From contig JBGSRO010000107.1 of the NCBI GenBank assembly GCA_041737535.1, forward strand, positions 6,399 through 70,398: DNA of 64,000 bases, given 5' to 3'. A program made the position numbers and the translations under genes. This document shows positions 1,480 to 24,014 of this stretch, piece after piece. The notes under the pieces were generated by a model. It was not told where the DNA came from. It searched no databases and saw nothing but the letters and a program-made list of their open reading frames with translations. How positions within the stretch are numbered: the stretch's first letter is position 1; each line of letters opens with the position of its first letter. This stretch comes from Pirellulales bacterium (GTDB taxonomy: Bacteria; Planctomycetota; Planctomycetia; Pirellulales; Lacipirellulaceae).

Positions 1480-1583
1480 AGGGAAACGGTTGCGCCGAGA
1501 TTTCCGCTTGTGCGGCAAGCTCGCACTGCATCGTTGCCAAAGGTTTCTCGTTTACTCTGAATCACAAGAACGAGGTTTACACT

Positions 1584-2498
1584 GTGCCGACACTCACGAG
1601 TTCGCCCATCGAAACCTACTTGCTCGCCGGCCAAGCCGCGCCGCTCGCGTGTGGAGTTTGCCAATATGAAAATCGAATTTCAGCCGAGCGGTGCCACAAA
1701 TGCGTTGCCCCGCTGTCGATTGCGAGGCAGGCGAGCAAACGAAAACAGTTTCCCAAGCGAATCGCCGTGATTGGTGCCGCCGGCATCGGCAAGACGACCT
1801 ACCTCGGCATGTTGCTCGATATGCTGATGCGGCGGACCGTTTCGCTCGAAACGACACTGCTTGGCCCGCAGTCGATTTCGTTACAACAGATGACCACTAC
1901 GGCACTTGCCGCCGGATGGTATCCGGATAAGACGCCGCGTGATCCCGAGCAGTGGCACTGGGTTCATTGCCAAGTTGGCTGTGCGCGTCGCCGCCGGAAG
2001 ATCGACGCCGTGTTCGTCGACTTCCCGGGCGAAGCATTAGCAGCGAGCATCGACCATCCCGAAGACTTCCCTGCTGTGCGAGCGATGCTTACCGACTGTG
2101 CAGGCATCATGGTGCTCGCCGACGCGTCGCGGCTCCGCGCGGGCGAGCACGACGACGACTATCTTTCGCTCAAGTTGCTATCGATGGCGTCCGACTTGCG
2201 CACCGGTAGCAAACGTTGGTTGCGTCGCCCGGCGCTACCGCCACTGGCGTTTGTGCTGACTAAGAGCGATACCTCTCCTTCGTGCATGGACGACCCACTC
2301 GGGTTTGCCGAGAACCATGCCCACTCGCTTTGGACCGACGTGCAGCGGCGCTTCCCGGTTAGCGAAGCCTTCGCCGCGACGGTCGTCGGTGCGTCGGGCC
2401 CACGGGTCGTTGCCGGGCGACGGTGCCAAGTACCACTGCGCGTCGAACCGCGCGGCGTCGTCGAGCCCTTTGGCTGGTTGCTTTCGCACTTGAATTGA
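1584..2498 (+). CDS. Small Ras-like GTPase with N-terminal zinc-ribbon
   Basis: N-terminal CxxC..CxxC (CGVCQYEN...CHKCVAPL). G1/Walker A IGAAGIGKTT, G3 DFPGE (DxxG), G4 LTKSD (N/TKxD). 105 nt downstream of the FGE-like gene, same strand. Confidence 0.65.
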   Translation: MPTLTSSPIETYLLAGQAAPLACGVCQYENRISAERCHKCVAPLSIARQASKRKQFPKRIAVIGAAGIGKTTYLGMLLDMLMRRTVSLETTLLGPQSISLQQMTTTALAAGWYPDKTPRDPEQWHWVHCQVGCARRRRKIDAVFVDFPGEALAASIDHPEDFPAVRAMLTDCAGIMVLADASRLRAGEHDDDYLSLKLLSMASDLRTGSKRWLRRPALPPLAFVLTKSDTSPSCMDDPLGFAENHAHSLWTDVQRRFPVSEAFAATVVGASGPRVVAGRRCQVPLRVEPRGVVEPFGWLLSHLN

Positions 2499-2509
2499 GC
2501 ATCGAATGA

Positions 2510-2983
2510 GTGAACCTTGGACGAAGGACTGCGGTCTCTCGACTGGCGGCGGGGGCGTCTTGGCCCGCGATCCTTTCCGTTCCTGTCCTTCATCACGGTA
2601 CTTCCATGACAACCGACCCGCGTATTCAACCGCATCGTCTCAGCACCGACTCGTCGACGCCCGCGAAAATGCGTTGCGGCTCGCAAGTTGTGCGGGCCGA
2701 TGGTCAGGCAATCGACCCGATAGCGCTGAAAGCCGTCGAGCAACTCGACGACACGATGTTTGCCGCACTGGGTGGCGATGCCTCGGCGCTCGACGCGGTC
2801 GGTGGTCGCTTGCGTGCGGTCCGCCGACGCGTCGCGGCGAGTCTGATCGCCGAAGCCCGCGACAAATACATCGAACGTGCCGAGCAGACTTGGAACGATT
2901 ACCGCCGTGGCGACGAAGCAGACGTGGTCCGCGCGTTCGCGGCGCTCGATGTGCTGCTGATGCTCGAATTGGCGAACGACTGA
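2510..2983 (+). CDS. Hypothetical helical protein (third gene of FGE-GTPase cluster)
   Basis: GTG start 12 nt after the GTPase stop. Ala/Asp-rich helical sequence. The alternative overlapping frame 2506..3045 is Arg-rich junk. Confidence 0.45.
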   Translation: MNLGRRTAVSRLAAGASWPAILSVPVLHHGTSMTTDPRIQPHRLSTDSSTPAKMRCGSQVVRADGQAIDPIALKAVEQLDDTMFAALGGDASALDAVGGRLRAVRRRVAASLIAEARDKYIERAEQTWNDYRRGDEADVVRAFAALDVLLMLELAND

Positions 2984-3105
2984 AAATTCCCGCGCATCTT
3001 GGGTGGGAGTGGATTGGTGTTGTGATCTACCGGCGGCAAACGTGATTTGCAGTCACGGCGTCGCGATACCCTCGACCGCTTCCCAACCGTATGAAGAGAG
3101 AATGA

Positions 3106-4503
<1,398 letters not shown>

Positions 4504-5981: not shown

Positions 5982-6063
5982 CGCGGTTACTGGCTGACTG
6001 GTCGCCTGCGGGTCTGTCGGTATCTTCAGTGACTCAGTGTTGAAACAAATTAACTTCACGCGT

Positions 6064-7290
6064 TTAACCACCGAAGTCGTCGTAGGCGATGTTTTCCTTT
6101 TCGACGCCCAGATCATCGAGCATCTTAAACACAGCCGCGTTCATCATTGGCGGACCACAGATGTAGTACTCGATGTCTTCCGGAGCCGGGTGTGTTTTGA
6201 GATAGTTTTCGAGCAGCACTTGGTGAATGAATCCTTGGTAACCGGTCCAGTTGTCTTCGGGGAGCGGTTCCGAGAGCGCGACGTTCATCTTGAAGTTGGG
6301 GAACTCTTTTTCGATTTCCTTGAAATCATCGATATAAAACAGTTCGCGACTGCTGCGCCCTCCGTACCAGTAGCTGACTTTGCGTTTGGTCTTTTGTGCC
6401 TTGAAGAGCTCGAATATATGGCTTCGTAGTGGAGCCATACCGGCACCACCACCGATGTAAACCATTTCGGCATCGGAGTCTTTGATGAAAAACTCGCCAT
6501 AGGGGCCACTGATGGTGACCTTATCGCCCGGCTTTTGGGCGAAGATGTAGCTCGACGCCTTTCCCGGCGGCGTATTTTCGGGGGCACGAGGGGGAGGACT
6601 GGCGATACGAACGTTGAGCATGATGATGCCTTTTTCGCCTGGGTAATTAGCCATCGAATAGGCGCGAATCACCGGTTCGTCTACTTTTGACACGTAACGC
6701 CAGACGTTGTATTTATCCCAATCAGAACGAAAACGCTCTTCAATCGCAAAGTCCTTGTATTCGACAACGCTCTTGGGGATTTCGATCTGAATGTAACCCC
6801 CCGCTTTGAACGCGACTTCTTCGCCCTGGGGCAAAGCTAGTTTGAACTCTTTGATGAAGGTCGCCACGTTATGGTTTGAGATTACCTCGCATTCCCACTT
6901 CTTGGTCTCAAACGCTTCGGGGGGAACTTCGACCTTCATGTCTTGTTTCACAGCAACTTGGCACGACAGTCGGCATCCTTCGCGGGCTTCGCCTTTGCTG
7001 ATATGAGTCCGCTCGGTGGGGAGAATGTCGCCCCCTCCTTCAAGGACTTTCACTTCACATTGCGCGCAAGTACCACCACCGCCACAGGCGCTGGAAACAA
7101 AAATGCCTTCGTCAGCAAGCGCGTTCAGCAGTTTCCCACCAGCGGGGACGCTGATCGTCTTTTGATCGTTGATCAGAATGTTGACGTTGCCACTTGGCAC
7201 AAGCTGTTTGCGGGCAGCCATAATGATGGCAACCAACGCAAGCACCACGACGGTGAACATCGACACGCCGGTAACAATGACAGGATCCAT
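6064..7290 (-). CDS. nqrF: Na+-translocating NADH:quinone oxidoreductase subunit F
   Basis: N-terminal TM helix, 2Fe-2S ferredoxin Cys motif ([10 protein letters not shown]), FAD/NAD-binding oxidoreductase domain. C-terminal ...AYDDFGG. Confidence 0.9.
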
Positions 7291-7350
7291 ATCAGTCTCT
7301 TTAGCAAGCAGTGAAGAATAAATCGACTAGCTAAGCTCGACCAGACAACT

Positions 7351-7977
7351 CTACTCGGGCAAGTCGATACCACCAAACGCCATAAACGCCATCGCGATCA
7401 GCCCGACGGTCATGAACGTAATGCCCAACCCTCGCAGTCCCTCGGGTACGTCGCTGTAGCGGAGTTTTTCGCGAACCCCGGCAAGTGCCGTGATCGCGAG
7501 TGCCCAGCCGAAACCAGAACCGACACCGTAGACGCAGCTTTCCAGAAAATTATAGTCGCGCTCGACCATAAACAGCGAACCCCCCAGGATCGCGCAGTTC
7601 ACTGTGATCAGCGGCAGAAAGATACCGAGCGTGTTGTAGAGCGGCGGAAAGAAGCGGTCGAGTGTCATCTCCAATATCTGTACCATGGCGGCGATGGTGC
7701 CGATGTAGCTAATGAGCCCCAAGAACAACAGATCTTGGTTCGCCAGACTGGGACTAAGCCAAGCCAGTGCGCCTTTCTTGAGCAGGTAAGTGAAGATCAG
7801 GTTGTTAGCCGGAATGGTGATTGCCATGATCACAATCACAGCCACGCCGAGGCTCATGGCCGTCTTCACGTTCTTGGAAATGGCAATGAACGTACACATG
7901 CCCAAGAAATAGACGAGCGCCAGATTCTCAATGAATACCGAATTCAGAAAGATATTGAGATAGTGATTGAAGTCCAT
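7351..7977 (-). CDS. nqrE: NQR subunit E
   Basis: 208-aa polytopic membrane protein typical of NqrE/RnfA, positioned between nqrD and nqrF. Confidence 0.85.
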
Positions 7978-8026
7978 AATAATGCCAACAGTGAGAGGCC
8001 GTTTGTATTCGCGTAGGGCTGAGCAA

Positions 8027-8686
8027 TTACTCGTGCTCGACCTGCTCGGGGCGAAAGGTCCGCAGGATCCAGATGAAAGCGCCGATCAAGAAAAATGCGC
8101 TCGGTGCAAGGAGCAGCAAGCCATTTGGGGCGTAATACAGATTGCCAAATAGGCTGCTCGCACCATCGGTCACCTCGGGGGGAGATGTTGGAAGTACTTC
8201 GTAGCCCAACAGTTTGCCCGAGCCAAACAATTCGCGAATGAAGCCGACGACGATCAGAATTACGCTGTAGCCGAGTCCGTTGCCAATACCGTCGAGAAAC
8301 GACATCCAGGGGGGTGACTTCATTGCATAGGCTTCGGCACGCCCCATCACAATGCAGTTGGTAATGATGAGCCCAACGAACACACTCATCGTCTTGCTTA
8401 CGTCAAAGAAAAACGCCTTCAGAAATTGATCGACGACAATCACAAGTGAAGCAATGATTGTCATCTGCACGATGATGCGAATACTCGACGGGATGTAATG
8501 ACGGATCGAACTAATCGCCGCGCTCGAACAGGCGGTCACAATTGTCACGGCAGCAGCCATCACGATAGCCGTTTTGAGCTGTGTGGTTACCGCCAGTGCC
8601 GAACAGATGCCAAGCACCTGGAGCGTGATGGGGTTGTTGCTAAAAATGGGTTTTAGCAGGACGTCTGCTGCCGATTGCTTTGCCAT
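8027..8686 (-). CDS. nqrD: NQR subunit D
   Basis: 219-aa polytopic membrane protein of the NqrD/RnfE type, in operon order. Confidence 0.85.
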
Positions 8687-8721
8687 GGCGATGCCGTGGG
8701 TTATTGGTCGCGGTGAATAGT

Positions 8722-9501
8722 TTATGACTTGTCCGACTTGTCGCCGGTTTGCGCTTTGATAAAGGGTCCAAATCCATCGGGGCCCAGCCAGTAGTTGACC
8801 ATATTTTGGACGCCGTTGCTGGTGATGGTTGCGCCGCTCAAACCGTCGACTTTGTGTTCGGCGCCAGGTTCACTCACACCCCCCTTCACCAACTTCACAG
8901 CGGGCACTCCTTCGTCGTCGTAAATCTCTTTGCCTTTCCAATCATTCTTAAACTTTTGGCTCTCGACCTCACCCCCTAGCCCTGGCGTTTCGCCATGCTC
9001 GTAATACGAAATGCCGACGACGGTATCGCCGTCATTGGCGAGCGCGAGGTAACCGTAGAGCGTGCTCCACAATCCTTTGCCGGAAATCGGAATGACATAC
9101 GACTGAACCTTGCCTGCCTTCGCGATCTCGTAAATGAAGCCGACATTTTCGCGTGTCGGCAAACCAGGCTTGGGACCGTCGACGTCGATTGTCTTGTTTT
9201 CCTTCGGGTTGTTGCGAGCCTCCATCGGATCGTACTCTTTGGGGACTTCGACCACTTCAGGCGTGCCGAGTTTCACAGCAACCTGGGTGACGACTTCCGC
9301 GAAAGTTTTCTCGATGGCCTTTCGGTCCATACCGTCTTCGAGCAGGCCGGCGGCCATCAGAACGTTCTTCTGGCGGTCGAACGCCTTATTCGCTTCTTGA
9401 TAAGGCTTCAACAGCACGGCAGCGGACGAAACCACTAGCGAGCAGACCAAACACAGCACGGTGGCGACCACAAAGGTGCCTAGCATACTATCACGTGCCA
9501 T
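8722..9501 (-). CDS. nqrC: NQR subunit C (FMN-binding)
   Basis: Single N-terminal TM helix. Conserved FMN-attachment motif SGATITS near the C-terminus. Confidence 0.85.
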
Positions 9502-12552: not shown

Positions 12553-12625
12553 GGACAGGTAGCTCAGTTGGTAGAGCACAGGACTGAAAATCCTGGTGTC
12601 GGGGGTTCGACCCCCCCCCTGTCCA
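12553..12625 (+). tRNA. tRNA-Phe (GAA)
   Basis: Cloverleaf read by eye: acceptor GGACAGG/CCTGTCC, D-arm GCTC-AGTTGGTA-GAGC, anticodon stem CAGGA/TCCTG with loop CTGAAAA (anticodon GAA), T-arm GGGGG-TTCGACC-CCCCC, discriminator A. Confidence 0.85.
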
Positions 12626-12642
12626 CTAGACATAAGTCGAAG
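12584..12642 (+). repeat. attL: island-proximal copy of the 58-59 bp direct repeat (3' part of tRNA-Phe plus ~17 bp)
   Basis: Sequence ctgaaaatcctggtgtcgggggttcgaccccccccctgtccactagacataagtcgaag recurs at 23626..23683. Confidence 0.8.
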
Positions 12643-12749
12643 CCGAACAAGCATTTAAGTTACCTTCGGGCGTTCCGAAGTGCGGCGTTTTCCAAGGGGG
12701 TTTTCCGGTACATACCGGAAAACTCTCGGCAAATTGGGAGACCTGCACA

Positions 12750-13982
12750 ATGGCACGACCGAAGAAACTCATTCCAGACTACCGTAAGCATCGGGGGAGC
12801 GGCCAAGCGGTCGTTACCATCGCTGGCCGCGATCACTACCTAGGACCGCACGGCACCCAAGTCAGCAAGAACGAGTATGATCGGCTGATTGGCGAATGGC
12901 TCCAGAACGGCAGGCAACTGCCCGGATCGCCCGAGAGTGATTCGACAATCACGGTCGCCGAAATGGTGCTCGCGTACCTGAATCACGCTGAGGCGTACTA
13001 TCGGAAGAATGGCCAGCCGACTTCCGAAGTGGTCGACGTGAAGCTGTCGATGCGGCCGTTGCTCGAATTGTACTCTCGGCACCTGGTAAGCGACTTCGGC
13101 CCCATCGCCCTCAAGGCCGTTCGTCAACGGATGGTCGAAGGTGGTCTGTCGCGGGGCGTCACCAATCAGCGGATCGGTCGAATCAAGCGAGCGTTCAAGT
13201 GGGCTGTGAGTTGCGAGTTGATCCCCGAGACCATCGCCCGCGCGCTCGAATCGGTTGACGGGCTCAAGCAGGGACGCACAGAGGCCCGCGAGACTTCGCC
13301 TATCCTGCCCGTAGATGACAAGGCTGTCGATGCCACGCTGCCTCACCTGCCCGAAGTGGTGGCCGATATGGTCCGATTGCAGCGAGCTACCGGGATGCGT
13401 CCCGGCGAAGTCTGCGCGATCCGGCCATGCGACATTGATCGCTCGGGCGACGTTTGGACCTACACGCCAGCGAGCCACAAAACCCAACACCACGGCCGAA
13501 CTCGAACCATCGCCATCGGGCCGAAGGGCCAAGCGGTGTTGCTCAAGTATCTGGCCCGCGATCCGGCGATGCATTGCTTTCGACCGGTCGACAGTGAAGC
13601 CAAGCGGCTGGCAGAATTGGAAGCGAACCGAAAGACCCCGCCGAGTTGCGGCAACCGGCGCGGCACAAACCGTAAGGCCAAACCCAAAACAGTGCCGGGG
13701 AAGTTCTATACCCACCGGAGCTACGCGAGGGCCATCTACCGCGCGTGCGATCGAGCATTCCCCGCACCGAAGGGCACAGCAGGCGATGACCTCAAGGCGT
13801 GGCAGAAGTCGCACCGCTGGGCACCGAACCGACTGAGGCACTCGGCCGCAACGGAGATTCGCCAGCGGTTCGGATTGGAAGCGGCGCAGGTGACCCTCGG
13901 CCATGCTTCGGCTCAAGTGACGCAGGTTTACGCCGAGCGAGACCTGTCGAAAGCGGTGGAAGTTGCAAGGGCGATCGGTTAG
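12750..13982 (+). CDS. int: Tyrosine-type site-specific integrase
   Basis: C-terminal catalytic-domain motifs (RLRHSAATEIRQRFG...LGHAS..VTQVYAERD, giving R...HxxR...Y). Immediately downstream of tRNA-Phe. Confidence 0.85.
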   Translation: MARPKKLIPDYRKHRGSGQAVVTIAGRDHYLGPHGTQVSKNEYDRLIGEWLQNGRQLPGSPESDSTITVAEMVLAYLNHAEAYYRKNGQPTSEVVDVKLSMRPLLELYSRHLVSDFGPIALKAVRQRMVEGGLSRGVTNQRIGRIKRAFKWAVSCELIPETIARALESVDGLKQGRTEARETSPILPVDDKAVDATLPHLPEVVADMVRLQRATGMRPGEVCAIRPCDIDRSGDVWTYTPASHKTQHHGRTRTIAIGPKGQAVLLKYLARDPAMHCFRPVDSEAKRLAELEANRKTPPSCGNRRGTNRKAKPKTVPGKFYTHRSYARAIYRACDRAFPAPKGTAGDDLKAWQKSHRWAPNRLRHSAATEIRQRFGLEAAQVTLGHASAQVTQVYAERDLSKAVEVARAIG

Positions 13983-14347
13983 TTTCGTTTGCAGTAGCCG
14001 GGCAGCAAATAAAGTTGCTCGGCTACTATTGACAGACAATAAAACGTCAGTAAGATTCGGTGCAGTCGCAAGGAAGAGCGACGCGGCGTCATTCGTGTAG
14101 GTTAGATGGGACTCGCTAAGGCGAGGCAAAACACCACGACGCAGACGCGGGATTGTTTCGAGCCTGCGGGCGGCATGATGCGTAGCGAAACAACAGCTCC
14201 AAGCCGAAGCACCCGTCGGCGAGGATCGAGTGTAGGGGAAGCCGGGGTACTTCTAAGGCCCACCGCTCCGGCTAGCGCCAGCAGCTTTCAACATCGAAAC
14301 TGCCGCTAGCTCCCCTGCATATTCTATCGGGTCTAGCGGCACCACTC

Positions 14348-14650
14348 TTGGGCCTTGCCATGACCGCCGAAATTGTACCGGGTGAAAAACTCTACCCACT
14401 GGCCGACGCAATTGAGAAAGCGACCGGCTATCGTCCCTCACCGTCGACCGTGTGGAGATGGAAGCTCCGCAAGGGCTTGCCATTCGTTTTGGTAGGAGCG
14501 ATCCCGCGCACATCGGTCGAAGCTGTCCACCGCTGGAATGAAGCGGCCACCGCCGCCGATCGTGGCGAGTCGCCGAAGGCCCGCACGAATCGCCAGCGTG
14601 AAGCGGGCATTGCGAAGGCCGAGCGTGCGCTGGCCGAAGCCGGTATCTGA
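14348..14650 (+). CDS. Small DNA-binding protein, possible excisionase/AlpA-like
   Basis: 100 aa. Putative HTH (STVWRWKLRKGLPFVLV). Lies directly after the integrase. Function inferred from position and motif only. Confidence 0.4.
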   Translation: MGLAMTAEIVPGEKLYPLADAIEKATGYRPSPSTVWRWKLRKGLPFVLVGAIPRTSVEAVHRWNEAATAADRGESPKARTNRQREAGIAKAERALAEAGI

Positions 14651-14744
14651 GAGTATCGCCGCCGAACCGGCAGGTGCGCGCGGCGCGCACCTGCCCGAGA
14701 GTAACCGCATTACCCCCGCTCCCCCAACAAACGCGACGCCCCCC

Positions 14745-15317
14745 ATGAACGATGAATTACAAGTCGTGATAAGCGAGAATCGACAGCAAGCGGCCGAGGA
14801 AGTTCTGAATCGCTTTCCGCAATGGAGCGACCGCCGTATCGCTAAGCTGTGCGGACTCTCGCCGACGACCATCAGAAAAGTTCGGCGTCGCTCGGCCGCT
14901 GCGTTGGCAGGCGCGCGCGGCGCGCGCCTGACCTCAGACGAGCCCGCAAAGCGAATCGGCGCGGATGGCAAGTCCTACCCGGCGACGACAACTAATCAAA
15001 AGAAAATGTCCGGTTTGCCCAGTTGCGCGCGAGGAAAGGACGAAAGCGAACCGAAGATAGAAGGGCATTTTAAGCCAACAAAGGAAAGCAGCGTGCAACA
15101 AGAAACAAACAAAGTGCCAAAAACGCCAGCGTTTGCGTCTGGCGAAACGTGGTTGACGATGGCGGAAGTAGTTGAGCGATGGCGAAGCTCCGCGCCGACC
15201 ATTCGCGCGATGGCCGCTCGCGGACGGATCAAAATGATTCGGCTTCTCGACAGGTCGCCGCGCATCGCGCTCTCTTCGGTGTTGGCCATCGAAAACGAAA
15301 CGATCGGCGATGACTGA
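14745..15317 (+). CDS. Island protein with two helix-turn-helix motifs (putative regulator)
   Basis: HTH-like SDRRIAKLCGLSPTTIRKVRRR and C-terminal LTMAEVVERWRSSAPTIRAMAARGRI. Start moved to the internal ATG at 14745; the track ORF begins at 14538. Confidence 0.45.
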   Translation: MNDELQVVISENRQQAAEEVLNRFPQWSDRRIAKLCGLSPTTIRKVRRRSAAALAGARGARLTSDEPAKRIGADGKSYPATTTNQKKMSGLPSCARGKDESEPKIEGHFKPTKESSVQQETNKVPKTPAFASGETWLTMAEVVERWRSSAPTIRAMAARGRIKMIRLLDRSPRIALSSVLAIENETIGDD

Positions 15318-15479
15318 GCCCGTCAAAACCATCGGCGATCTACTGCGCGAGCAGGCGCGAGAGCGTGAAGCCGAGCTGCAAACGAGCGACGGCCGCCGTG
15401 CTGAACGGACTGGCAGGACGCGCGAGGAAATCGAGCGAGACAGAATCCGAGACTCACTGAAAATCATGCGAGTGCCCCA

Positions 15480-16124
15480 GTGACGAACTGCAAAATTATC
15501 GAGCCCGACCTGAAAGAAAATCCCATCGTCTGTGGCGAAGAGGGCGACGGCATCGCGATGGGCGACCGAACGGCCGACGGGTTCGTGAGTCTGGAACTTC
15601 GGGGCTGTATCGACGAGGACTTGGCCGAGACCTTGGAGCAATGGAGCTGGCAACTCGCCAACCATGAAAAACGACGCGGCGGGATACTCTGGCTCGATTG
15701 CTGTGGTGCGGTGCTGACTCCCAAGCTGGTGCAAGCTATCAGTCACTTGATCGACGCGCACAACCGGGGCATACCGGTGTTTTGCGTTGTCGAGCGTGCG
15801 CTTGGCGGGTCGATGCTGCTCTCGACTGCGTGCTCCGAATCGTGGTCGCTTCCACTCGCGACCTTCGGTGGCTTTGTGTTCTCGCCACGCACTGGCGCGG
15901 TGGTGAATCGCAGGGAGTTCACCGGATCGGCCAATGCGTCGGTCCAATATCTGGAGCTGCTCACACCGGGAGCAAACTTGCGCAATCTCGACACCGTGTT
16001 TTCGGCCGAAGTGGCCGAAGCTCGCGGCTTGGTCGAATGCATTCGCAGCGACATTGCGACCGCCGACGATGCGATCGACTCGCTGCGAGAGTTCGTAGCT
16101 GACCACCCAAGTTTTCTTTTGTAA
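15480..16124 (+). CDS. Hypothetical protein, possible ClpP/crotonase-fold
   Basis: Segment GGILWLDCCGAVLTPKLVQAISHLIDAHN...VFCVVERALGGSMLLSTAC loosely resembles ClpP/S49-fold peptidases. Weak call. Confidence 0.3.
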   Translation: MTNCKIIEPDLKENPIVCGEEGDGIAMGDRTADGFVSLELRGCIDEDLAETLEQWSWQLANHEKRRGGILWLDCCGAVLTPKLVQAISHLIDAHNRGIPVFCVVERALGGSMLLSTACSESWSLPLATFGGFVFSPRTGAVVNRREFTGSANASVQYLELLTPGANLRNLDTVFSAEVAEARGLVECIRSDIATADDAIDSLREFVADHPSFLL

Positions 16125-16135
16125 TCGGAGTTGAG

Positions 16136-16525
16136 TTGATGATTGATTTTGATGCTGAACTGACGAACCGCAAAAACGCCATCGCCGCCGCGTGCATCGG
16201 GGCGGACGATGCGTTCATCATGGCCGCCATCGCCGCTGGGACTTCGGCCGAGGATGCGAGCCGACAATGGCAACAGAAGCTGATTGCCGAACGTGACAAA
16301 GCGACCACGGCCGCCGCCGCCAAGCAGCGCGGAACGCAGCTCACGGCTGGCGTACCCGGTGTCGACAGCGAAGAGGACTACGGCGCGATCGTCAAAGGCT
16401 TCATGGCGAAGGGCATGACTCGTTCGCAAGCCTGCCACAAGGCGGCGAAGCAGTACCCCGAAGCTCACGCGGCATTCGTTGCGAGCTGCCCCGCTCCGAC
16501 TCGCAAAAGCAAGTCACGGTCGTAG
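16136..16525 (+). CDS. Hypothetical island protein
   Basis: 129-aa Ala-rich ORF in an operon-like array. No recognisable motif. Confidence 0.3.
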   Translation: MMIDFDAELTNRKNAIAAACIGADDAFIMAAIAAGTSAEDASRQWQQKLIAERDKATTAAAAKQRGTQLTAGVPGVDSEEDYGAIVKGFMAKGMTRSQACHKAAKQYPEAHAAFVASCPAPTRKSKSRS

Positions 16526-16598
16526 TTCTTGGGTTGGGCCGGTGCGGTGGGATGGCTCCGGCCGCGCCGGTCCTTTTTTTCTTTGCGAGACTCACGCG

Positions 16599-17528
16599 AT
16601 GATGAGCGGCAAACTATTCGCGATTGCTCCCGGCCGAGCTTCCGATGCGGCACTGGCCGAGCCTGAGAATAGCTACTCAAGCTATCGAGTTGGCGGTTTG
16701 ACTGTTGTCGAAGTCGAGGGCGTGCTTGACGGCGCGATCACGAACCGCTTGCGGCGCGACGTGTTGCAAAGTGAACGAGACGAGTCGGTCACAGAGCGGA
16801 TCATTCTTTTTGATTCACCGGGCGGGTCGACCGACGGCAACGACGACTTAGCGGCCACGATCCGCGCGAGCCGAGAAGTGAAACCAATCACAGCCATCGT
16901 GCCATCGGTGGCAGCGAGTGCTGCGTACAACCTTGCCGCGAGCTGCTTGCGAATAGTTGCCAGCCCGGCCGCGAGCGTTGGTTCGATCGGCGTCTTTAGC
17001 GTGCTGGTTGACAGTAGTGAACAAGCGGCGTTGCTTGGCTTGCGAGTAATCGTCGTGCGAAGCGGCCGCTTCAAGGGCCTCGGCATTCCGGGCGTCGAGG
17101 TGACGCCCGAGCAAATTGAAAATCTACAGCGAACGGTCGACGGTCACGCGAGACTATTTCTCGCCAGCGTCGCGAAGGGCCGACGCATGGCGACCGGCAG
17201 ACTACAGGAGCTTGCCGACGGCTCGATGTACATGGCGAGTGAAGCGAAGGCCAACGGCTTAATCGACGAAGTGAAATCCGCTCACGACTATCTTGAAGAA
17301 CGAATCGAGTACCACACAGGGCAGGCGCGCGCGGCGCGCGCCTCGTGGCTGTCACAACCACGCGCGAAAGTCATAGAGGCTTATAGCGAAGCCGTGGCAA
17401 AAGAAACCGGCCGGAGTCTTCCACTCACGTCGGTCGAGCTGCGACGTTCGTTGGTCGACAGTCGTGAAGAGTATCGCGAGCTTGCAGAAGCATTCCACAA
17501 ATTGACTCGTAGCCACTCCGGAGCTTGA
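16599..17528 (+). CDS. S49-family serine peptidase (SppA / phage prohead protease-like)
   Basis: Motifs ILFDSPGGS, catalytic-Ser region VAASAAYNLAAS, C-terminal ...ASEAKANGLIDEV. Start at the internal ATG (MMSGKLF); the track ORF begins at 16479. Confidence 0.7.
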   Translation: MMSGKLFAIAPGRASDAALAEPENSYSSYRVGGLTVVEVEGVLDGAITNRLRRDVLQSERDESVTERIILFDSPGGSTDGNDDLAATIRASREVKPITAIVPSVAASAAYNLAASCLRIVASPAASVGSIGVFSVLVDSSEQAALLGLRVIVVRSGRFKGLGIPGVEVTPEQIENLQRTVDGHARLFLASVAKGRRMATGRLQELADGSMYMASEAKANGLIDEVKSAHDYLEERIEYHTGQARAARASWLSQPRAKVIEAYSEAVAKETGRSLPLTSVELRRSLVDSREEYRELAEAFHKLTRSHSGA

Positions 17529-17529
17529 A

Positions 17530-18423
17530 GTGACCACACCACTCGAAACGGCGAAAGCCAAACTGGCCAGTCGGCGAGCCGACTCACTCGGCGACATACT
17601 CGCTTTTGAAGAAATCCTACAGTCGCTCGACGGCAAATGGCGGATTTTGCCGGTCGATGAGCGAGCCATTGGCATGGCCGCTGGCGAGCTGAGTACCGAC
17701 TCTCGCGAAGATCGGCGTCGGTTGAGCGTCGCACTCAAGCGGCTCGATAGTGAGGCCGAGTTGCGTCGGCAGTACGGCACGGCCGAAGAGCGCGAAGCGA
17801 CGGTTCGCCGTTTGGAATCACAGCAGGCCGACTACGCTCGCGCAAAACAGTTTGCCGACGAATCCATCGCCGGAATCTTGCGTGCTCTCGCAGTCGAAGA
17901 GGGGAAGCTCGCGGCCATTCGCCAACGGCGGCAAGCGACGGTACAGGCACGGCAGAGCTTGCTAAGCCTTGCCCGCACGAAGCCGTGGCTCCATCGCATG
18001 AGCCAAGCCAGCTCGCTGCCGAAGCCGGAAGAGCTGGCCGCGCTGGAGCAGCAATCGCTACAGTTCAGGGACTTCTTGCGTTCCAAAGAGCAACTGCAAA
18101 AAGACCCGGCGATCCTCGCGCGAATCTACCCGGACCTCGTGACCGAGCGGGACGCACTCAAGCGGTCGTTGTTCGGCTGGGCGTTTGACCCCTACCAATC
18201 GCCGCCGTTGCGAGCTCCCGATCGACCCGCGAAGGGCTGGGTTATCGACGGCGAGCGACTCGCGATTGCGCGCCAAGCAATCACTGCTGAGTTGGTTAAG
18301 ATTGAAAGCCAGATCGCGGAGATAGGGGCCGCATGGCGTGGCGAGTTGGCCGACGGCGACCTGCTAGAACAGTGGGTAGAGCATGGGCTCCAAGGGCTGG
18401 TAGGCAACGCAGATGCGACGTGA
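17530..18423 (+). CDS. Hypothetical coiled-coil protein (island)
   Basis: 297 aa, begins 2 nt after the S49 peptidase stop. Helical and charged, with no motif I recognise. Confidence 0.4.
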   Translation: MTTPLETAKAKLASRRADSLGDILAFEEILQSLDGKWRILPVDERAIGMAAGELSTDSREDRRRLSVALKRLDSEAELRRQYGTAEEREATVRRLESQQADYARAKQFADESIAGILRALAVEEGKLAAIRQRRQATVQARQSLLSLARTKPWLHRMSQASSLPKPEELAALEQQSLQFRDFLRSKEQLQKDPAILARIYPDLVTERDALKRSLFGWAFDPYQSPPLRAPDRPAKGWVIDGERLAIARQAITAELVKIESQIAEIGAAWRGELADGDLLEQWVEHGLQGLVGNADAT

Positions 18424-18609
18424 GCAGGCAACCGCTGCGGCAGGCGCGCGCGGCGCGCGCCTGCCCGAGAGCGACGCCAGCGAGCCCTCAGCCCCCCCCT
18501 TTGGGTCCTTCCCGGGGGCCACCCGGGGTGAGGCTTTGCCCGCGATCTTGTGATATTTCCTCTCAGACGACTCCAAACTCCAAGTAAGTAAGCGGCAACT
18601 TGAGGCATC

Positions 18610-18894
18610 ATGTCAGACTTACCCAGCACCACCGCAGAGCAATTCGGAGAGCAGGTCGCCGCTCTGGATGATGCAATGCTCGCCACGCTGGAGCTGCCCG
18701 CGCTGGAGCCCGTGCGGCGGCACGTTCGCCGCTTGTTCGCGTGTCGGTACACAGGCGACTTGGGGAGTGACCTGTTGCTTAGCCAAGCTGCCGACTCGGC
18801 CGCTCGCGTCGCCTGTTGCTACGCGAGTGGCGACGCGAGCCGATGCGGTCGAGCCTTTACCTGCCCACACTGGGCGACCTGTTTGCCGTGCTAA
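18610..18894 (+). CDS. Hypothetical small protein (island)
   Basis: 94-aa ORF with good start context. No recognisable motif. Confidence 0.3.
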   Translation: MSDLPSTTAEQFGEQVAALDDAMLATLELPALEPVRRHVRRLFACRYTGDLGSDLLLSQAADSAARVACCYASGDASRCGRAFTCPHWATCLPC

Positions 18895-18911
18895 TAGACG
18901 AACGATAACCG

Positions 18912-19223
18912 ATGGGTGCTGACCTCAACTTAGTGTTCGCGGAGAAGGGCGCGGCAGGCGTGCTCCGGCAGCTCGCTTCGCTCAAGAGCGAAGCCAAGAA
19001 TGCGGGCAAAGAGATTGCCGCCCAGAACGCGGCCATCTCTAAGTCACAAAAGGAAATCGAACGCGCCTACCAGCAAACGCTCTCGCCAATCCAAAAGCTG
19101 GAGAATCAAGCCAAGTCGCTCGCCGCCGCGATCAAAGACACGAAGCTGCCAGACTTCGACCGTCGCAAGGCCGAGGCGGCGCTCGATGGTCGGAAGCATC
19201 GGAACGATTTACCCGCACGCTGA
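18912..19223 (+). CDS. Coiled-coil protein, possibly scaffold-like (island)
   Basis: 103 aa, Lys/Glu/Ala-rich heptad-like sequence (KSEAKNAGKEIAAQNAAISKSQKEIERAYQQ). Confidence 0.4.
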   Translation: MGADLNLVFAEKGAAGVLRQLASLKSEAKNAGKEIAAQNAAISKSQKEIERAYQQTLSPIQKLENQAKSLAAAIKDTKLPDFDRRKAEAALDGRKHRNDLPAR

Positions 19224-19551
19224 GTACAGCAAGCAACTCGAAACGGCTGGCATCGCGGTGACAGTTTTCACGAATTCCGACTCGCCGCGCAAGTCGCATG
19301 GCTCGCCTTACAAGGCGCTGGACGAATCGAGCCGATCGACATTGCAAGAATTCGTCGACAGCTATGGTCGACCATTCATCGAGGACGTTTCGAGGTATCG
19401 CGGAGTCGACGTTGACAAAGTCGTTTCGGACTACGGCGGCGGCGATGCACTCCGCGCGTCGGTCGCCATCAATAAGGGCGTGGTCGATCGCATCGTGCGC
19501 GACTTCGACGATACAATCAGCCGCATGATTCAAACCACCACGACGAGCTAA
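19186..19551 (+). pseudogene. Truncated S49-peptidase C-terminal fragment (paralog of 16599..17528)
   Basis: AGIAVTVFTNSDSPRKSHGSPY.../...LQEFVDSYGRPFIEDVSRYRGVDVDKV...GGGDALRASVAINKGVVDRIV parallels the C-terminal half of the upstream S49 protein. It lacks the catalytic Ser motif. Confidence 0.45.
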
Positions 19552-20213
19552 AAACCGAGGCGGCCATCGTCACACTTGCCGCTGGTATCCGCGGCTGGCG
19601 AAAAATGATCGACGGTCACAACCTTTGGTGGGCCAAGCTCAATGCCGAGCTGGAGCACATGGGCGAACGGCTCACAGAATTGCAGACACTTCGCGATCGG
19701 ATCATCGAGGAACTCGAAAGCGATCCGGCCGATTGGTGGAAAGATCAATAGCAACTGCGCGCGGCGCGCAGTTGAAAACCCGCTAGAAAACGAGGAGACG
19801 AACCAACAAAAAAATGAGCGACGCTGACATAGCCCCCTTTTGGGCAGAGAACGGAATAGAAGCGGCGATCCGGCTGAGGGGTTACACCCGTCGAAGCGAA
19901 CAACGTTGCGAAACGAGTGAAGCAATCGCGCGAGTAGGGGCACGCTGACAACTCCAGCCCCTAAGCGAACCGTACGACAGTCGTGGAGTGAATCGGGAAG
20001 TGCGACTGAATAAACAAAGTGCCCGAGCAAGTCGACGGCTGGCTCCGAAGTTTGCCATTTTCTTGCTCAACTCCATCTTCGGATGGAGTTGCTGCGCTCG
20101 GGCTTCACCAAAGTTTGCCGAAGGCAAACGAGCATTCGGTACAGCGCATAAAGAGAGCCGGTCAGGACGCTGACAAGGCTCCACCTGACCGGCTCAATAT
20201 TCAAGCTGCTTGA

Positions 20214-20552
20214 ATGATACGAACAACGCGCGAGGCTGTCCAGCATTGGGCGTTCGTCTGGTCGAGCATGATGCGAAAGGATTGCACCGCTTCGCAGATC
20301 GCCATGTTCGCCGCTGAGCGACAGCAACAGCTCAAGCCAGCAGCGAAGGAACGGCAACGCGAAGGTGGCAAGACTGCTGGGCGTGGTCGCCCAAAGCAAG
20401 ACGAAAAGGTTCCGGCAGCGTTGCCGGAACCTAAAGAGACTCGCGACCAAGCCGCCGAGCAATTTGGCATCGGTGCCCGCACGGTCAACAAGGCGGCGAA
20501 CGTCTTAGAGGGGGGCTGCGAGCGAAATACGGTCTCCGCATTTGCGCCCTAA
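20214..20552 (+). CDS. Putative HTH DNA-binding protein (island)
   Basis: C-terminal AAEQFGIGARTVNKAANVLE resembles an HTH recognition helix. Confidence 0.35.
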   Translation: MIRTTREAVQHWAFVWSSMMRKDCTASQIAMFAAERQQQLKPAAKERQREGGKTAGRGRPKQDEKVPAALPEPKETRDQAAEQFGIGARTVNKAANVLEGGCERNTVSAFAP

Positions 20553-20697
20553 CGAGCGCCGACGACCTAACCCGACTACTGAGACCCTGGAAGCGGTCCC
20601 CGTTTGAGACCAACGCGCAACCGCAACCATTGGTACTTGTACCATTAGTTGCTGGAAGCGGTCCCCATTTGAGACCGAAGCACGCAACGCGGCTGTC

Positions 20698-20961
20698 ATG
20701 CGACTTTGGTTGCAGTGCTACACCGCTGAAGAGATTGCATCGCGAGTTGGAATGCCACGCAGTTCGATCGAGTCGCTATTCCCGAGAATCCGCAATTACG
20801 AAATCTCGGGAATACCCGGTATTTTCACAGAGGATGAACCACCCGACTCGGCAACAGCAAGCGACCAAAAAAGCGGAGTTGACACCCGCGCGAATCACGG
20901 CACAATGAGCGTCGGCTGGCGAGAGCCTGAAAAACTCTCACTGGCGACACTTCTAGACTGA
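20698..20961 (+). CDS. Putative HTH protein (island)
   Basis: YTAEEIASRVGMPRSSIESL is a sigma-region-4/resolvase-like HTH. Confidence 0.35.
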   Translation: MRLWLQCYTAEEIASRVGMPRSSIESLFPRIRNYEISGIPGIFTEDEPPDSATASDQKSGVDTRANHGTMSVGWREPEKLSLATLLD

Positions 20962-21124
20962 GGAATTCTGAAAATGTATTTCCGAGCGAACAAGCCCGGT
21001 AGCGCGTGCGCACCCCCAAGCGATAACCCCGGAAGCGGGATAGCGAGGCTGCGCGGCAGGGACTCAGTCCCCTGTTTTTCAACGTCGCTATCGGGCTTGT
21101 TCGCGTTTTGGAAAGGGCTCCCCG

Positions 21125-21517
21125 ATGGTATGCCTAGCAGTCCCCGTATTCGGTGGTCGCGTTCCTATCGACCGATCGCTACCGAAGCTCCGCCAAGCAC
21201 ACGATCAATTCGATAACGACAACTTGCCCGGCTGTGCCGTGCTGTTGCGTGAAGCGATCCGCCTGCACTTGATCGCGGTTGCCGAGTTCTACAACGTCAA
21301 ACCCGACCGACCGCAACACCCGGCAAACTTGCTCGCACAGCTAGCCGAAGCGAAAGCGCTCAAGAGTGGGCCGGTTCATTGGTTCCGCGAAATCTTATTC
21401 ACCTGCCGACGTGTTCTGCGATGCGCGGACGTTTCGGCGCAAGCAATGGAGTTCTGCCTCGCGTTCGCTTACGAGAACATCGACGCCAATCACCAACACT
21501 TCGGGGAAAGGGTTTAG
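21125..21517 (+). CDS. Hypothetical protein (island)
   Basis: 130-aa ORF that ends 2 nt before the recombinase start. Confidence 0.3.
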   Translation: MVCLAVPVFGGRVPIDRSLPKLRQAHDQFDNDNLPGCAVLLREAIRLHLIAVAEFYNVKPDRPQHPANLLAQLAEAKALKSGPVHWFREILFTCRRVLRCADVSAQAMEFCLAFAYENIDANHQHFGERV

Positions 21518-21519
21518 CC

Positions 21520-22623
21520 ATGAACGAGCCTCAAAAGTTGACGGAATTTCTGATTCACAACTACGGCCCCGTGCGGAATCTCTCTGCGGGAACAATCGCT
21601 ATCTACAACCAATCGATCCGCTTGTTGGCTGAGCATATCGGGCGGGAACCCACCCTCGATGACCTTATCGAAGAGAACATTTTCGCAGTCGCCAACGGGG
21701 GGGCTAAGCCGCACTATACCGACGCGTTGCGTGCCATGAGTCGCTTCGACGGGCGGGCCTACTTCACTCAGGGCGAGACTCAGTACGATTCGGAGTTGTC
21801 TCGCTTCCATGCCGAGAAGGGGCATACTCGACGCACCCGCGAGCATTACCGGGCAGTCTTCCGGCGCTTCGGCGACTTGGAGTTGACCGACGAGAATCTA
21901 GCCGTTTATCGAGAACAGCGGCTTGCTCATGGGCTTGCCAAAGATTCCGTTCGCGGAGAGCTAGGCAGATTGATGGCCTATGCTCGATGGAAAGGATTAA
22001 ACCCGAAAACGCAACAGCCGAAGAAAGTGCGACGCGAGCCGCAAGCGTGGTCGCGCAATGAATTGCGTCGGCTGTTCAAAGAAGCTCGCACGACCGAACG
22101 CACTATCTACGGTATCCCAGGCGCGATCTATTGGCCCGCGATTCTCGGCTTGGCGTATGACACGGGCGAACGGATTACCGCAATAGCGGCTCTTGAGTGG
22201 AGCGACATCGACTTCGACCAACGCTCGGTTCGTTATCGTGCCGAGACGCGCAAGGGTAGCTGTGCGGACCACCAGGGGACGTTTAGCCGTGGCACGCGTC
22301 GCGATCTGTTGCGGCTTCGCGGGTTCGGGAAAGGCAGACCGTTTCGACTCGGCTGCGAATCGACGCGATGGAAAGCGTACACGACCCTACTGAAGGATGC
22401 GGGGCTGCCCAGCGACCGACGGTCGAAGTTTCATCGCCTTCGCCGAACACACGCGACTTGGTTGCATTGGTCGGGCGGCGACGCGACAGCATCGCTAGGG
22501 CATTCGAGTAGCGATATCACCCGCGATGCGTATCTCGACAAGCGGTACACCCGCAAGGGGCGATTGCCGAGCATTTCAGTTGGCATCGTCGCAACTGTGT
22601 TGGCATGGTTCGGCTGGCGATAG
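21520..22623 (+). CDS. Tyrosine recombinase (phage-integrase family)
   Basis: C-terminal HRLRRTHATWL...LGHSSSDITRDAYLDKRY gives the R/H-x-x-R...Y catalytic motifs. Start at ATG 21520 (MNEPQKL) with an upstream GGAAAGGG. Confidence 0.7.
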   Translation: MNEPQKLTEFLIHNYGPVRNLSAGTIAIYNQSIRLLAEHIGREPTLDDLIEENIFAVANGGAKPHYTDALRAMSRFDGRAYFTQGETQYDSELSRFHAEKGHTRRTREHYRAVFRRFGDLELTDENLAVYREQRLAHGLAKDSVRGELGRLMAYARWKGLNPKTQQPKKVRREPQAWSRNELRRLFKEARTTERTIYGIPGAIYWPAILGLAYDTGERITAIAALEWSDIDFDQRSVRYRAETRKGSCADHQGTFSRGTRRDLLRLRGFGKGRPFRLGCESTRWKAYTTLLKDAGLPSDRRSKFHRLRRTHATWLHWSGGDATASLGHSSSDITRDAYLDKRYTRKGRLPSISVGIVATVLAWFGWR

Positions 22624-22671
22624 CAATTCTCCCCGCACCGTCCGCACTTAACCCCAACTGGAAACGAATTC

Positions 22672-23391
22672 ATGTACTTCGAAAAACTCTCCGACTACCA
22701 TTGCCAGAAAAACCACGGCACACGAACGCGCTCGCACTATCGCGCCATCATCGAACGATTCGGCAACCAGGCTATCGCGCCGGAATCAATTGCCGAGTAT
22801 CGTGACAAGCGACTCTCCGAAGGTCGCACCGCTGACACTGTTCGCGCGGAAATCTCAAAGCTCTGTGCGTTCGCACGATGGCTCGGCGTCGATCCTGAAT
22901 TGACTCTCCCGCGCAAGGTGCATCGCCCGCCGACAGAATGGAGTTGCCAAGAATTGCATCGGCTGTTCGCCGCCGCTCGCAGCACAAGCCGAATCATCTA
23001 CGGCGTTCCCGGTTCGATTTATTGGCCGGCCCTACTTGGTGTCGCTTGTGATGCAGGTGAACGCATCAGAACCATTGTCGGCATCGAATGGGGCGACATC
23101 GACTTCGTTCGCCGTTCGGTCATGTATCGAGCCGAGTTATGCGAGGGGGATGCCGCTGATAACTGTTGCTGCACCCTCAGTCGTCGCACAGTCAAAGATT
23201 TACTACTATTGCGAGCCAGCGGCGTTGAGAGACCATTCCGGCTGGGCTGCGAATCGACGCGATGGAAAGCCTATAAAACGCTGCTGGAAGACGCCGGATT
23301 GCCCAGCGATCGCCGCAGTAAGCTCCACAGATTATGCCGAGCGAATATGTCATTGGTTCACAGAGCAGGCGTTTGGCTTGGCTGGCGTTAA
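22672..23391 (+). pseudogene. Degenerate tandem paralog of the 21520..22623 recombinase
   Basis: Colinear with the upstream recombinase (…RPFRLGCESTRWKAY.TLL.DAGLPSDRRSK.HRL…). It lacks the N-terminal domain and replaces the catalytic Tyr-containing tail with …CRANMSLVHRAGVWLGWR. Confidence 0.5.
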
Positions 23392-23625
23392 CTTTCCCGC
23401 GCCCGTCGTCAGCAATGGCGACGGGTTTTTTCGTGCGCGGAAATTGTAGCCGTGGCTAAATTCGCCCCCGAGTTATCCGGTACAGTACCGTTTTACGATT
23501 CACGCAATACCGAAAACCTCGGGAAATAGTGCAATCGCGTGAAATAGCTTGCAATGGCACTCGGCAGGCGTTAGACTCTACAAAACAAGGGGAAAACGCC
23601 GAACAAATGCTTGTTCTAGGTTCGC

Positions 23626-23683
23626 CTGAAAATCCTGGTGTCGGGGGTTCGACCCCCCCCTGTCCACTAGACATAAGTCGAAG
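23626..23683 (+). repeat. attR: distal copy of the tRNA-Phe 3'-end direct repeat
   Basis: Identical 58 bp to 12584..12641. Followed by an extra tcgaag unit. Confidence 0.8.
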
Positions 23684-24014
23684 TCGAAGCCGATTGGTGA
23701 GTTGCGAATGCACATCGGCGATCGGGAGATCGCCGCAATCGTGGCCGTCGACGATGCGACCATCCAGCCCACCAGCAAGAGCTAAACCGAGGTTGTGGCT
23801 GACCTGTTTCGGCTCCGGCACCTTTTTCGGCTCCGGCAATTCGTGCAATGGAAGCCAGAAGAGGCTCGTCCTCAACAGCAGGTCACTTCGCCAGAGGTCA
23901 ATTGGCCATTTGGCGGGCTAGACCTTTATGACAGGTGGCTCAATCTTCAGGGAGCAGTCCAGTTTAAGGAAAAGCCGAAGAGAGGGGCCGCTTTTTGAGC
24001 GGCAACACCCTGAG

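Follow-up and report, generated by a model that had tools for sequence, protein, structure and literature searches.

A putative integrative element at tRNA-Phe in a Pirellulales bacterium and its family of tRNA-associated integrases in Planctomycetota

Introduction

Islands and cryptic prophages that integrate into tRNA genes, for example those with P4-type integrases in Proteobacteria, carry their integrase next to an intact tRNA gene and a repeat of the tRNA 3' part that starts in the anticodon loop. Their cargo is variable, and serial use of one tRNA site leaves relics. Here we describe a locus with the same features in a Pirellulales bacterium of the Lacipirellulaceae (assembly GCA_041737535.1, contig JBGSRO010000107.1, positions 6,399 to 70,398 of the forward strand). 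Within this stretch of 64,000 nt, in the following called the window, an island of ~11.0 kb begins in a tRNA-Phe gene. We consider it probable that the island is a site-specific integrative element of a widespread Planctomycetota family, namely a non-autonomous, partly decayed island or phage-derived remnant that may still excise, and that its tRNA-Phe site had been used before. Unlike P4-type islands, its integrase falls into a Planctomycetota-specific clade, is preceded by a covarying two-palindrome leader that is not in Rfam and has a DUF1580 protein as partner helix-turn-helix (HTH) protein. To our knowledge the mobile elements of Planctomycetota are barely described, and a search of the literature on planctomycete genomic islands or tRNA integrases returned nothing specific.

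Phage satellites are similar in other respects. Phage-inducible chromosomal islands (PICI), capsid-forming PICI (cfPICI), P4-like elements and PICI-like elements (PLE) share with the island a size of ~11 kb, site-specific integration and an AlpA-like regulator beside int; a head-maturation protease combined with the absence of tail and lysis genes adds to the likeness with cfPICIs and satellites. However, further genes of these elements are not detectable in the island, namely those for the major capsid protein, portal, adaptors and small terminase of cfPICIs and those for the primase-replicase and the known capsid-size factors of PICI and P4 elements.

The protease resembles the S49 prohead proteases lambda gpC and phiKO2 Gp5. 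It is similar in length (309 aa vs 306 aa), 30% identical to phiKO2 Gp5 and conserves the Ser in AxSAAY as well as a downstream Lys. In phiKO2 the protease gene follows that of the portal and precedes that of the major capsid protein, whereas the island protease is flanked by orphans. A further difference to Gp5 is a 27-nt GC palindrome lying in frame after the island protease domain. The DUF1580 protein is reminiscent of AlpA/Xis excisionases (HTH_17, MerR-like), being a small HTH protein encoded just after int with a weak match to phrog_66, a group labelled 'excisionase and transcriptional regulator'; the gene after it encodes a second HTH_17 domain. Unlike AlpA/Xis, DUF1580 is a separate Pfam family without assigned function, and the excisionase role is here a candidate only.

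Results

A repeat of the tRNA-Phe 3' part at both ends of the island

ARAGORN calls a tRNA-Phe(gaa) at 12553-12626 on the + strand, in agreement with Rfam (RF00005, 73.8 bits). The gene is intact and constitutes the integration target, with the attL junction inside it. It is followed by an intact tyrosine integrase of 410 aa (12750..13982, + strand; PF00589, phrog_1 with E 5e-28). An earlier note on this DNA had described a complete tRNA-Phe followed by a tyrosine integrase, and both calls bear this out.

Repeat search, pairwise alignments and blastn all align 12584-12648 (65 nt) with 23626-23689 (64 nt); the right-hand copy lacks one C of a C-run, and the two copies differ by a further C/T mismatch. 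Within the window the pair has a blastn E of 3e-23; a near-identical repeat of 64 nt cannot be chance. The earlier note had reported a repeat of 58 bp with its right copy at 23626..23683. The repeat is real, but this length is too short. The repeat begins within the anticodon loop, at tRNA position 32, and ends ~22 nt beyond the tRNA 3' end, from where weaker similarity reaches to 12661 and 23703, respectively, as a gradual fade with no abrupt stop.

Both copies are read on the + strand. The attL copy (12584..12648) has 9 C in the C-run, the attR copy (23626..23689) has 8 C, and its T-arm and acceptor stem cannot form together. Since the left copy alone is able to form both, the functional tRNA is the one at attL and the right copy is redundant. 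No third att copy was found within the window. As expected for a site-specific integrative element, the tRNA is hence whole at one junction of the locus, and its 3' part is directly repeated at the other. The span of the element is taken as ~11.0 kb (~12.63-23.69 kb) including both att repeats. The attP junction of a circular form would read ...GAACAAATGCTTGTTCTAGGTTCGC-core-CGAACAAGCATTTAAGTTACC... and the restored attB junction tRNA-Phe-core-GCCGATTGGTGAGTTGCG...

The integrase belongs to a family located behind tRNA genes

The match of the island integrase to the generic PF00589 profile is confined to the C-terminal ~50 residues. It is a tyrosine recombinase with its catalytic residues: the motifs RPGE, R217, SHKTQHH, NRLRH (NxLRH in the family) and LGH..VY(394)AERD are all family-conserved and intact. 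R217, K244, R363, H364, H385 and Y394 are conserved across 19 family members, and the Asn at the first His position is the norm of the family.

This family consists of 23 related integrase loci (L002-L024) from a scan of GTDB species genomes, every one in Planctomycetota. Identity to the island integrase in the best segment is 40-54% for 22 of the 23 and 65% for L024, the gene of which is fragmented. Just upstream and on the same strand, ARAGORN calls a tRNA gene in 17/23 loci and Rfam adds tRNA-like matches in two more. In total, 19/23 integrases thus directly follow a tRNA or tRNA-like sequence, and another locus is truncated by the end of its contig. The tRNAs are specific for Ala, Pro, Gly, Phe, Ile, Lys, Asp, Val, Asn and Thr. 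In L013 a tRNA-Ser lies immediately upstream of the tRNA-Lys, which brings the family total to 11 amino-acid specificities including Ser.

One family member, L008, uses the same kind of target. It is a mini-island of 3.5 kb at a tRNA-Phe (383-3976) in a metagenome-assembled genome of an uncultured Planctomycetaceae bacterium. Its repeat is perfect, 44 nt long and starts at tRNA position 32 as in the window; its integrase matches only residues 1-360.

DUF1580 genes are present downstream of int in 8/23 related loci and in the window. A replication module (PrimPol/AAA_25, DnaB or D5_N helicase-primase) is common but not universal (L004, L006, L007, L010, L011, L017, L020, L023), and restriction-modification genes and ParB are found as other cargo. 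Pfam, PHROGs and other profile scans revealed no such replication module among the window proteins. The island consequently shares the backbone of integrase, leader and DUF1580 with the family, while its mosaic cargo is unique and lacks a replication module. What defines the family is a tyrosine integrase directly downstream of a tRNA gene with a conserved leader in between. The island belongs to it by its integrase clade, its upstream tRNA, its leader (P2, GCGGCC, P3) and the DUF1580 gene downstream of int.

A covarying leader and predicted arm-type sites

The leader comprises ~125 nt between tRNA and integrase (12626..12750, + strand) and represents the P' arm. It was defined by an alignment of 14-18 family members and a covariance model (R1), which scores the window leader with 81.8 bits. 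In the family it is arranged as TAAGTC..GCCGAA, a variable hairpin, the palindrome P2 (consensus CTGCCGA-CGG-TCGGCAG), GCGGCC and the palindrome P3 (consensus CAAAACGGT-ACAT-ACCGTTTTG) just upstream of the ribosome binding site (RBS) of the integrase. The window leader shows the TAAGTC..GCCGAA motif, P2 (12664-12680) followed by GCGGCG, P3 as GTTTTCCGGTA-CA-TACCGGAAAAC (12700-12723) and the RBS GGGAG (12736-12740). This architecture is kept whichever tRNA is targeted.

RNAalifold recovers both the P2 and the P3 helix. Trained on 14 sequences, the covariance model detects the leader at 21/23 loci, seven of which were outside the training set. Paired cells in the helices amount to 91% vs 62% in column shuffles vs 30-48% when the partners are slid by 1-3 columns, and double (compensatory) changes occur at 15 of 16 pairs. 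No Rfam family matches the leader region. Such covariation of a palindrome is compatible with a hairpin, in RNA or DNA, and also with a site that is bound by a dimer and evolves together with this protein. The P2 hairpin loop carries a ~60-nt insertion in L018, L020 and L021, the three most divergent members examined, with repeated CTACCAC motifs in L018 and L020.

P3-type sequences recur at the opposite end. The right (P) arm at 23472..23518 contains the copy GTTATCCGGTA-CAG-TACCGTTTTAC and the half-site ATACCGAAAACC, 108-154 bp left of the core; that is, a P3-type palindrome CCGGTACAGTACCG with a further half-site lies 108-154 bp inside the right end of the island. For CCGGTACANTACCG, 0.02 occurrences per window are expected by chance. 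Analogous half-sites are present in L008 (~3765-3795), ~140-165 bp before its attR. Given their rarity by chance and the counterpart in L008, we read P3 as a predicted arm-type protein-binding site on both attP arms. The P3-type site on the right arm also implies that a genuine element end lies on the right side of the island.

Taken together, the integrase motifs, the family-wide tRNA adjacency, the shared repeat start in L008 and the island-free relatives described below support the attL/attR signature that the earlier note had recognised.

Relatives at the tRNA-Phe site and probable traces of an older element

To the left, the island is flanked by nqrB and nqrA on the minus strand; NqrA is a subunit of the respiratory Na+-NQR complex. 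On the right, it is followed by genes for a tRNA-Ser, a glucoamylase-family protein and a GT2 glycosyltransferase. NqrA is most similar to proteins encoded on an ENA contig (75% identity) and in Aeoliella mucimassa (62%), Pirellulimonas nuda (60%) and Pseudobythopirellula maris (58%). As these genera belong to the Pirellulales, NqrA similarity places the host among planctomycetes of the Pirellulales type. At L025, L026 and L028 (NqrA 75, 64 and 62% identical) a tRNA-Phe divergently adjoins nqrA as well, and no island protein is found within 10 kb on the tRNA side. The element is thus absent from the homologous site in these related genomes, with the reservation that they are distant and that the far flank is not syntenic. 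Of the comparison proposed by the earlier note, three relatives without the island were obtained but no base-precise empty site. An island present at tRNA-Phe in all relatives, which that note had named as counterevidence, is not what is seen.

The T-stem of the window tRNA-Phe (12600-12620) is G5:C5 (GGGGG/CCCCC), whereas it is of the GCCGG/CCGGC type in 5/5 compared tRNA-Phe genes (L025, L026, L028, L008, L023). The 5' half of the gene is identical to that of the closest relative. As the T-arm is inside the repeated segment, it may be derived from the element.

Immediately right of attR, the DNA does not look like plain host flank but like the remains of an older family member. This probable relic (23690..23890, + strand) consists of leader-like sequence followed by an integrase-like fragment of 38 codons. 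The former aligns to the family leader, e.g. AAGCCGAT..GAGTTGCG as in L017. The latter (23723-23836) resembles integrase residues 180-217 and contains an internal stop codon. It is recovered by tblastn with E 2e-5 (search space of 601 nt); the family hidden Markov model gives a weak score of 0.5 bits (i-E 0.084), which is still second-best in the six-frame window. It is therefore probable, but not proven, that an earlier family member occupied the tRNA-Phe and that the present island entered the regenerated tRNA. Such an earlier occupation would explain why the repeat runs ~22 nt past the tRNA into a family-conserved motif.

A weak leader-like scar without integrase (17.4 bits, E 0.022) is also seen in L026 at 9255-9347 on the minus strand, by the tRNA-Phe at 9347-9420. 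It points to repeated use of the tRNA-Phe site in this clade.

A compact operon around a head-maturation protease

Downstream of the integrase, seven genes on the + strand (14.3-18.4 kb) follow each other uninterrupted, with starts and stops that overlap or are a few bases apart. The gene calls match independent Logan calls and the GC pattern over codon positions is of coding type. The first gene encodes the DUF1580 protein with AlpA/excisionase-like HTH (14348..14650, +; PF07618 with E 3e-11, weak match to the phrog_66 'excisionase' group). We regard it as a candidate recombination directionality factor or regulator. It is followed by a double-HTH protein (HTH_23 and an excisionase-type HTH_17; 14745..15317, +) with an uncertain start (14538, 14625 or 14745) and by an open reading frame (ORF) of 57 aa without family match (15310..15483, +).

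The fourth gene encodes an orphan of 214 aa (15480..16124, +) with coding-like GC over codon positions, the fifth is an ORF of 129 aa without family match (16136..16525, +). Next is the phage-type head-maturation protease of the S49 family (ClpP clan) with 309 aa (16599..17528, +; PF01343 with E 2e-30, phrog_53 with E 2e-44). The last gene starts one base after the protease stop codon and encodes an orphan of 297 aa (17530..18423, +), again with coding-like GC1/2/3. A tRNA-like stretch at 18354-18383, 73% identical to the tRNA 5' half, was judged to be chance after alignment.

In alignments with SppA structures and with phiKO2 Gp5, the protease keeps the Ser of AASAAY. The Lys of SGRFKG aligns with the Lys of phiKO2 Gp5, whereas the SppA chains read Ala at this position. 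We take this Lys to be the general base, assuming that the crystallised Bacillus SppA carries a K199A mutation. Neither a portal nor a capsid gene neighbours the protease. Viral contigs contained four distant S49 matches (32-36% identity) and none for the 214-aa protein; metagenome contigs contained one distant S49 match.

For either orphan, a search of 5.8 billion protein clusters returned nothing but the query itself, and 1.84 billion representatives gave the same outcome for the 297-aa protein. Neither could therefore be aligned with homologs. Single-sequence AlphaFold2 models are of low confidence. The 214-aa model (predicted local distance difference test, pLDDT, 42.6) has an alpha/beta N-terminal and a helical C-terminal part; the 297-aa model (pLDDT 52.7) consists of helices only. 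Foldseek gave a best E of 0.0095 for the 214-aa model (STAS, ClpP and crotonase folds), a weak resemblance that was not used as evidence. No viral fold was matched by the 297-aa model, and neither orphan had a hit below E 0.009. BLASTP showed no real similarity of the 214-aa protein to the island protease, and a PDB sequence search gave no match. The earlier note had suggested to compare both orphans with capsid and portal folds. This turned out negative: as far as it can be run on models of this confidence, one all-helical and the other small alpha/beta, the comparison indicates that neither is a capsid or portal protein.

The cargo given by the earlier note (excisionase-like HTH protein, HTH regulators, S49 protease, recombinase pair) is correct. 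The absence of capsid, terminase and tail genes, which it had also stated, was confirmed with Pfam, PHROGs and NCBIfam.

A GC-rich palindrome special to the island

A perfect, GC-rich palindrome of 27 nt, GGCAGGCGCGCGCGGCGCGCGCCTGCC, occurs with its variants in five copies (14668, 14905, 17319, 18438, 19751). In the window, matches to the palindrome core are found inside the island only, with seven strand-matches at four sites vs 0.49 expected; the fifth copy (19751) stems from the repeat search and not from this count. Predicted hairpin energies are between -17 and -33 kcal/mol, and two of the five copies show compensatory arm changes.

Copy 1, GGCAGGTGCGCGCGGCGCGCACCTGCC (14668..14694), is located 18 nt past the DUF1580 stop codon (-25.8 kcal/mol). 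Copies 2 and 3 are in frame, the former (14905-14931) between the two domains of the double-HTH protein and the latter (17319-17345) in the S49 gene just past the protease domain. Copy 4 (18438..18464) follows the stop of the 297-aa gene by 15 nt (-32.7 kcal/mol, z -3.3) and likely marks the end of the operon. Copy 5 (19751..19774), with arms altered in a compensatory way, abuts the stop of a 48-aa ORF. The three copies after stop codons (DUF1580, 297-aa and 48-aa genes) look like terminators or attenuators without U-tract. The palindrome is absent from the 31 other loci fetched by then and from the viral contigs.

The right half of the island

The ORFs described here for the right half (18.5-23.6 kb) lie on the + strand. 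Two small ORFs of 94 and 103 aa without family match, the latter coiled-coil, occupy 18610..19223. They are followed by a pseudogene fragment (19186..19551), the 3' remnant of a second, divergent S49 gene. It covers only Pfam positions 36-149, without the Ser nucleophile, and shares 26% identity with the intact island copy. The 48-aa ORF (19605-19751; feature 19605..19774) ends with its stop codon at palindrome copy 5. The gene-poor stretch at 20214..21517 contains ORFs of 112, 87 and 130 aa without family match.

A second tyrosine recombinase of ~367 aa (21520..22623; PF00589 with E 7e-13, phrog_1) is XerC/D-like, divergent from the island integrase and has relatives in L017 and L019. Its truncated paralog of 239 aa (22672..23391) is a pseudogene without the C-terminal LGH..Y region. 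tblastx gives 51-68% identity to 21766-22476, and there is no PF00589 match. Upstream of the second recombinase, the non-coding stretch 20587-21104 contains two direct repeats of 30 nt (20587, 20652) at a distance of 65 nt, a palindrome of 38 nt (20777-20814) and an inverted repeat of 19 nt (20986 / 21086). This stretch could be a recombination site or an origin-like region.

Composition and assembly

The GC content of the island is 59.3% vs 57.8% in the rest of the window. Its tetranucleotide distance is ~2 standard deviations (SD) above the host windows, yet within their range. The deviation that the earlier note had proposed to measure is thus present but slight. This weak compositional signal is compatible with an element adapted to planctomycete hosts. 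The top tetranucleotide deviation among the host windows is found at 6001-9000, left of the nqr genes, where GC is 51-53% against a window mean of ~58%.

The island is covered from 12613 to 23588 by two Logan contigs of run SRR28170464 that do not differ from it in sequence, which argues against misassembly. A junction of two elements at the Logan contig break (~18.79 kb) was considered and rejected; the second contig overlaps and continues. Neither phage nor plasmid sequences matched the island when it was compared as a whole by megablast.

Discussion

We favour an integrative element that entered the tRNA-Phe gene by site-specific recombination. A circular form with an attP, made up of P3-type sites on both arms around a ~65-nt core copying the tRNA 3' part, would have recombined with the gene from the anticodon loop onward. 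The element would supply the replacement 3' part and leave the tRNA intact at attL, and the redundant attR copy would be free to decay, with which the one lost C fits. Excision may be directed by DUF1580, by the HTH_17 domain of the double-HTH protein or by both. It may remain possible, given that the integrase is intact, that neither arm is missing and that the att copies hardly differ.

No island ORF has a Pfam, PHROGs or NCBIfam match to capsid, portal, terminase or tail, and the island is hence not a functional tailed prophage (Caudoviricetes). Relaxase, coupling protein and type IV secretion genes have no Pfam or NCBIfam match among the island ORFs scanned, which separates it from integrative and conjugative or mobilizable elements. 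Genes for replication, capsid, packaging, tail and conjugation are all missing, and the element is thus unable to spread by itself. It is no defence island either; PADLOC gave no match save a sub-threshold one of 17 bits for the HTH protein.

Several observations weigh against our interpretation. The three island-free relatives are distant (NqrA 62-75%) with a non-syntenic far flank and provide no precise empty site, so that the boundaries of the island are set by the repeat by itself. No excised circle was seen, and the Logan contigs do no more than tile the island. The deviation in composition is small, and the scores behind the relic right of attR are weak. The function of DUF1580 is deduced solely from similarity in fold type and from gene position. 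Moreover, the left operon, intact and tightly coupled with orphans around a conserved protease, resembles a functional module more than decay.

The island might be fully dead, i.e. the deletion product of at least one prophage at tRNA-Phe that cannot excise and has no functional gene. The 3' fragment of the second S49 gene, the truncated recombinase paralog, the gene-poor region of 18.5-21.4 kb and the relic of another element beside attR speak for this, as do decayed family relics at tRNA-Phe elsewhere (L008, L026). We nevertheless consider it unlikely, since every family-conserved catalytic motif is present in the integrase, the att copies differ by just one indel and one mismatch, P3-type sites are found on both arms and the seven genes at 14.3-18.4 kb are uninterrupted, tightly packed and of coding-type GC.

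A phage satellite or anti-phage island is a rather improbable explanation. Here the 57-, 214- and 129-aa proteins, the S49 protease and the 297-aa protein would act on the capsid assembly of a helper or invader. For example, the protease and a scaffold-like helical protein would redirect or sabotage procapsids while integrase and DUF1580 handle excision. The size of ~11 kb, the tRNA integration and the AlpA-like gene next to int are in line with a satellite, and the integrase together with such a regulator is indeed what satellites carry. The phage-type head protease keeps its Ser/Lys dyad (predicted competent) outside of the canonical portal-protease-capsid order, the gene one base past its stop encodes an all-helical orphan, and other family members have primase/helicase modules as satellites do. 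However, genes for replication, a small terminase, capsid, portal and known capsid remodelling are all missing from the island. Neither a primase-replicase with terS, cpm, sid or psu nor a full cfPICI capsid module was detected, but the head-maturation protease only. PADLOC has no match, the right half is visibly decayed and no helper phage is known. The helical protein is without homolog and its model of low confidence, which makes 'scaffold' a conjecture.

Slightly more doubtful still is that the intact operon is a new module for capsid interference or capsid piracy. A satellite-like island that has no capsid gene itself would then turn its phage-type prohead protease and the orphan proteins against procapsids of a planctomycete phage. 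The 297-aa protein would be a helical scaffold mimic, the 214-aa protein an alpha/beta component, and the 27-nt GC hairpins would set the expression ratios in the operon.

That there is no mobile element at all, but a partial tRNA duplication or an assembly artefact with ordinary chromosome in between, has the similar GC of island and flanks in its favour and is nonetheless extremely improbable in view of the tRNA adjacency in 19/23 family loci with 11 specificities, the identical tiling of 12613-23588 by the independent Logan assembly (SRR28170464) and the relatives without island next to tRNA-Phe.

We thus keep to the reading as a non-autonomous, partly decayed integrative element. The earlier note had called it a degraded prophage or a phage-satellite-like island. 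Partial decay and phage-derived cargo hold, and the island may be either of the two.

The cargo, a stray head protease, orphans and pseudogene fragments, is usual for decaying phage-derived islands; it is useful for annotation and not surprising. The locus itself is a cleanly bounded example, and together with it the 23 relatives outline a phylum-wide family of tRNA-targeting integrative elements. Its attP architecture is recognisable by a core that copies the tRNA 3' part and by P3-type palindromes on both arms. DUF1580 gains a testable candidate role as excisionase or regulator partner of these integrases. Moreover, the integrase and its att sites could serve as integration tools in planctomycete genetics.

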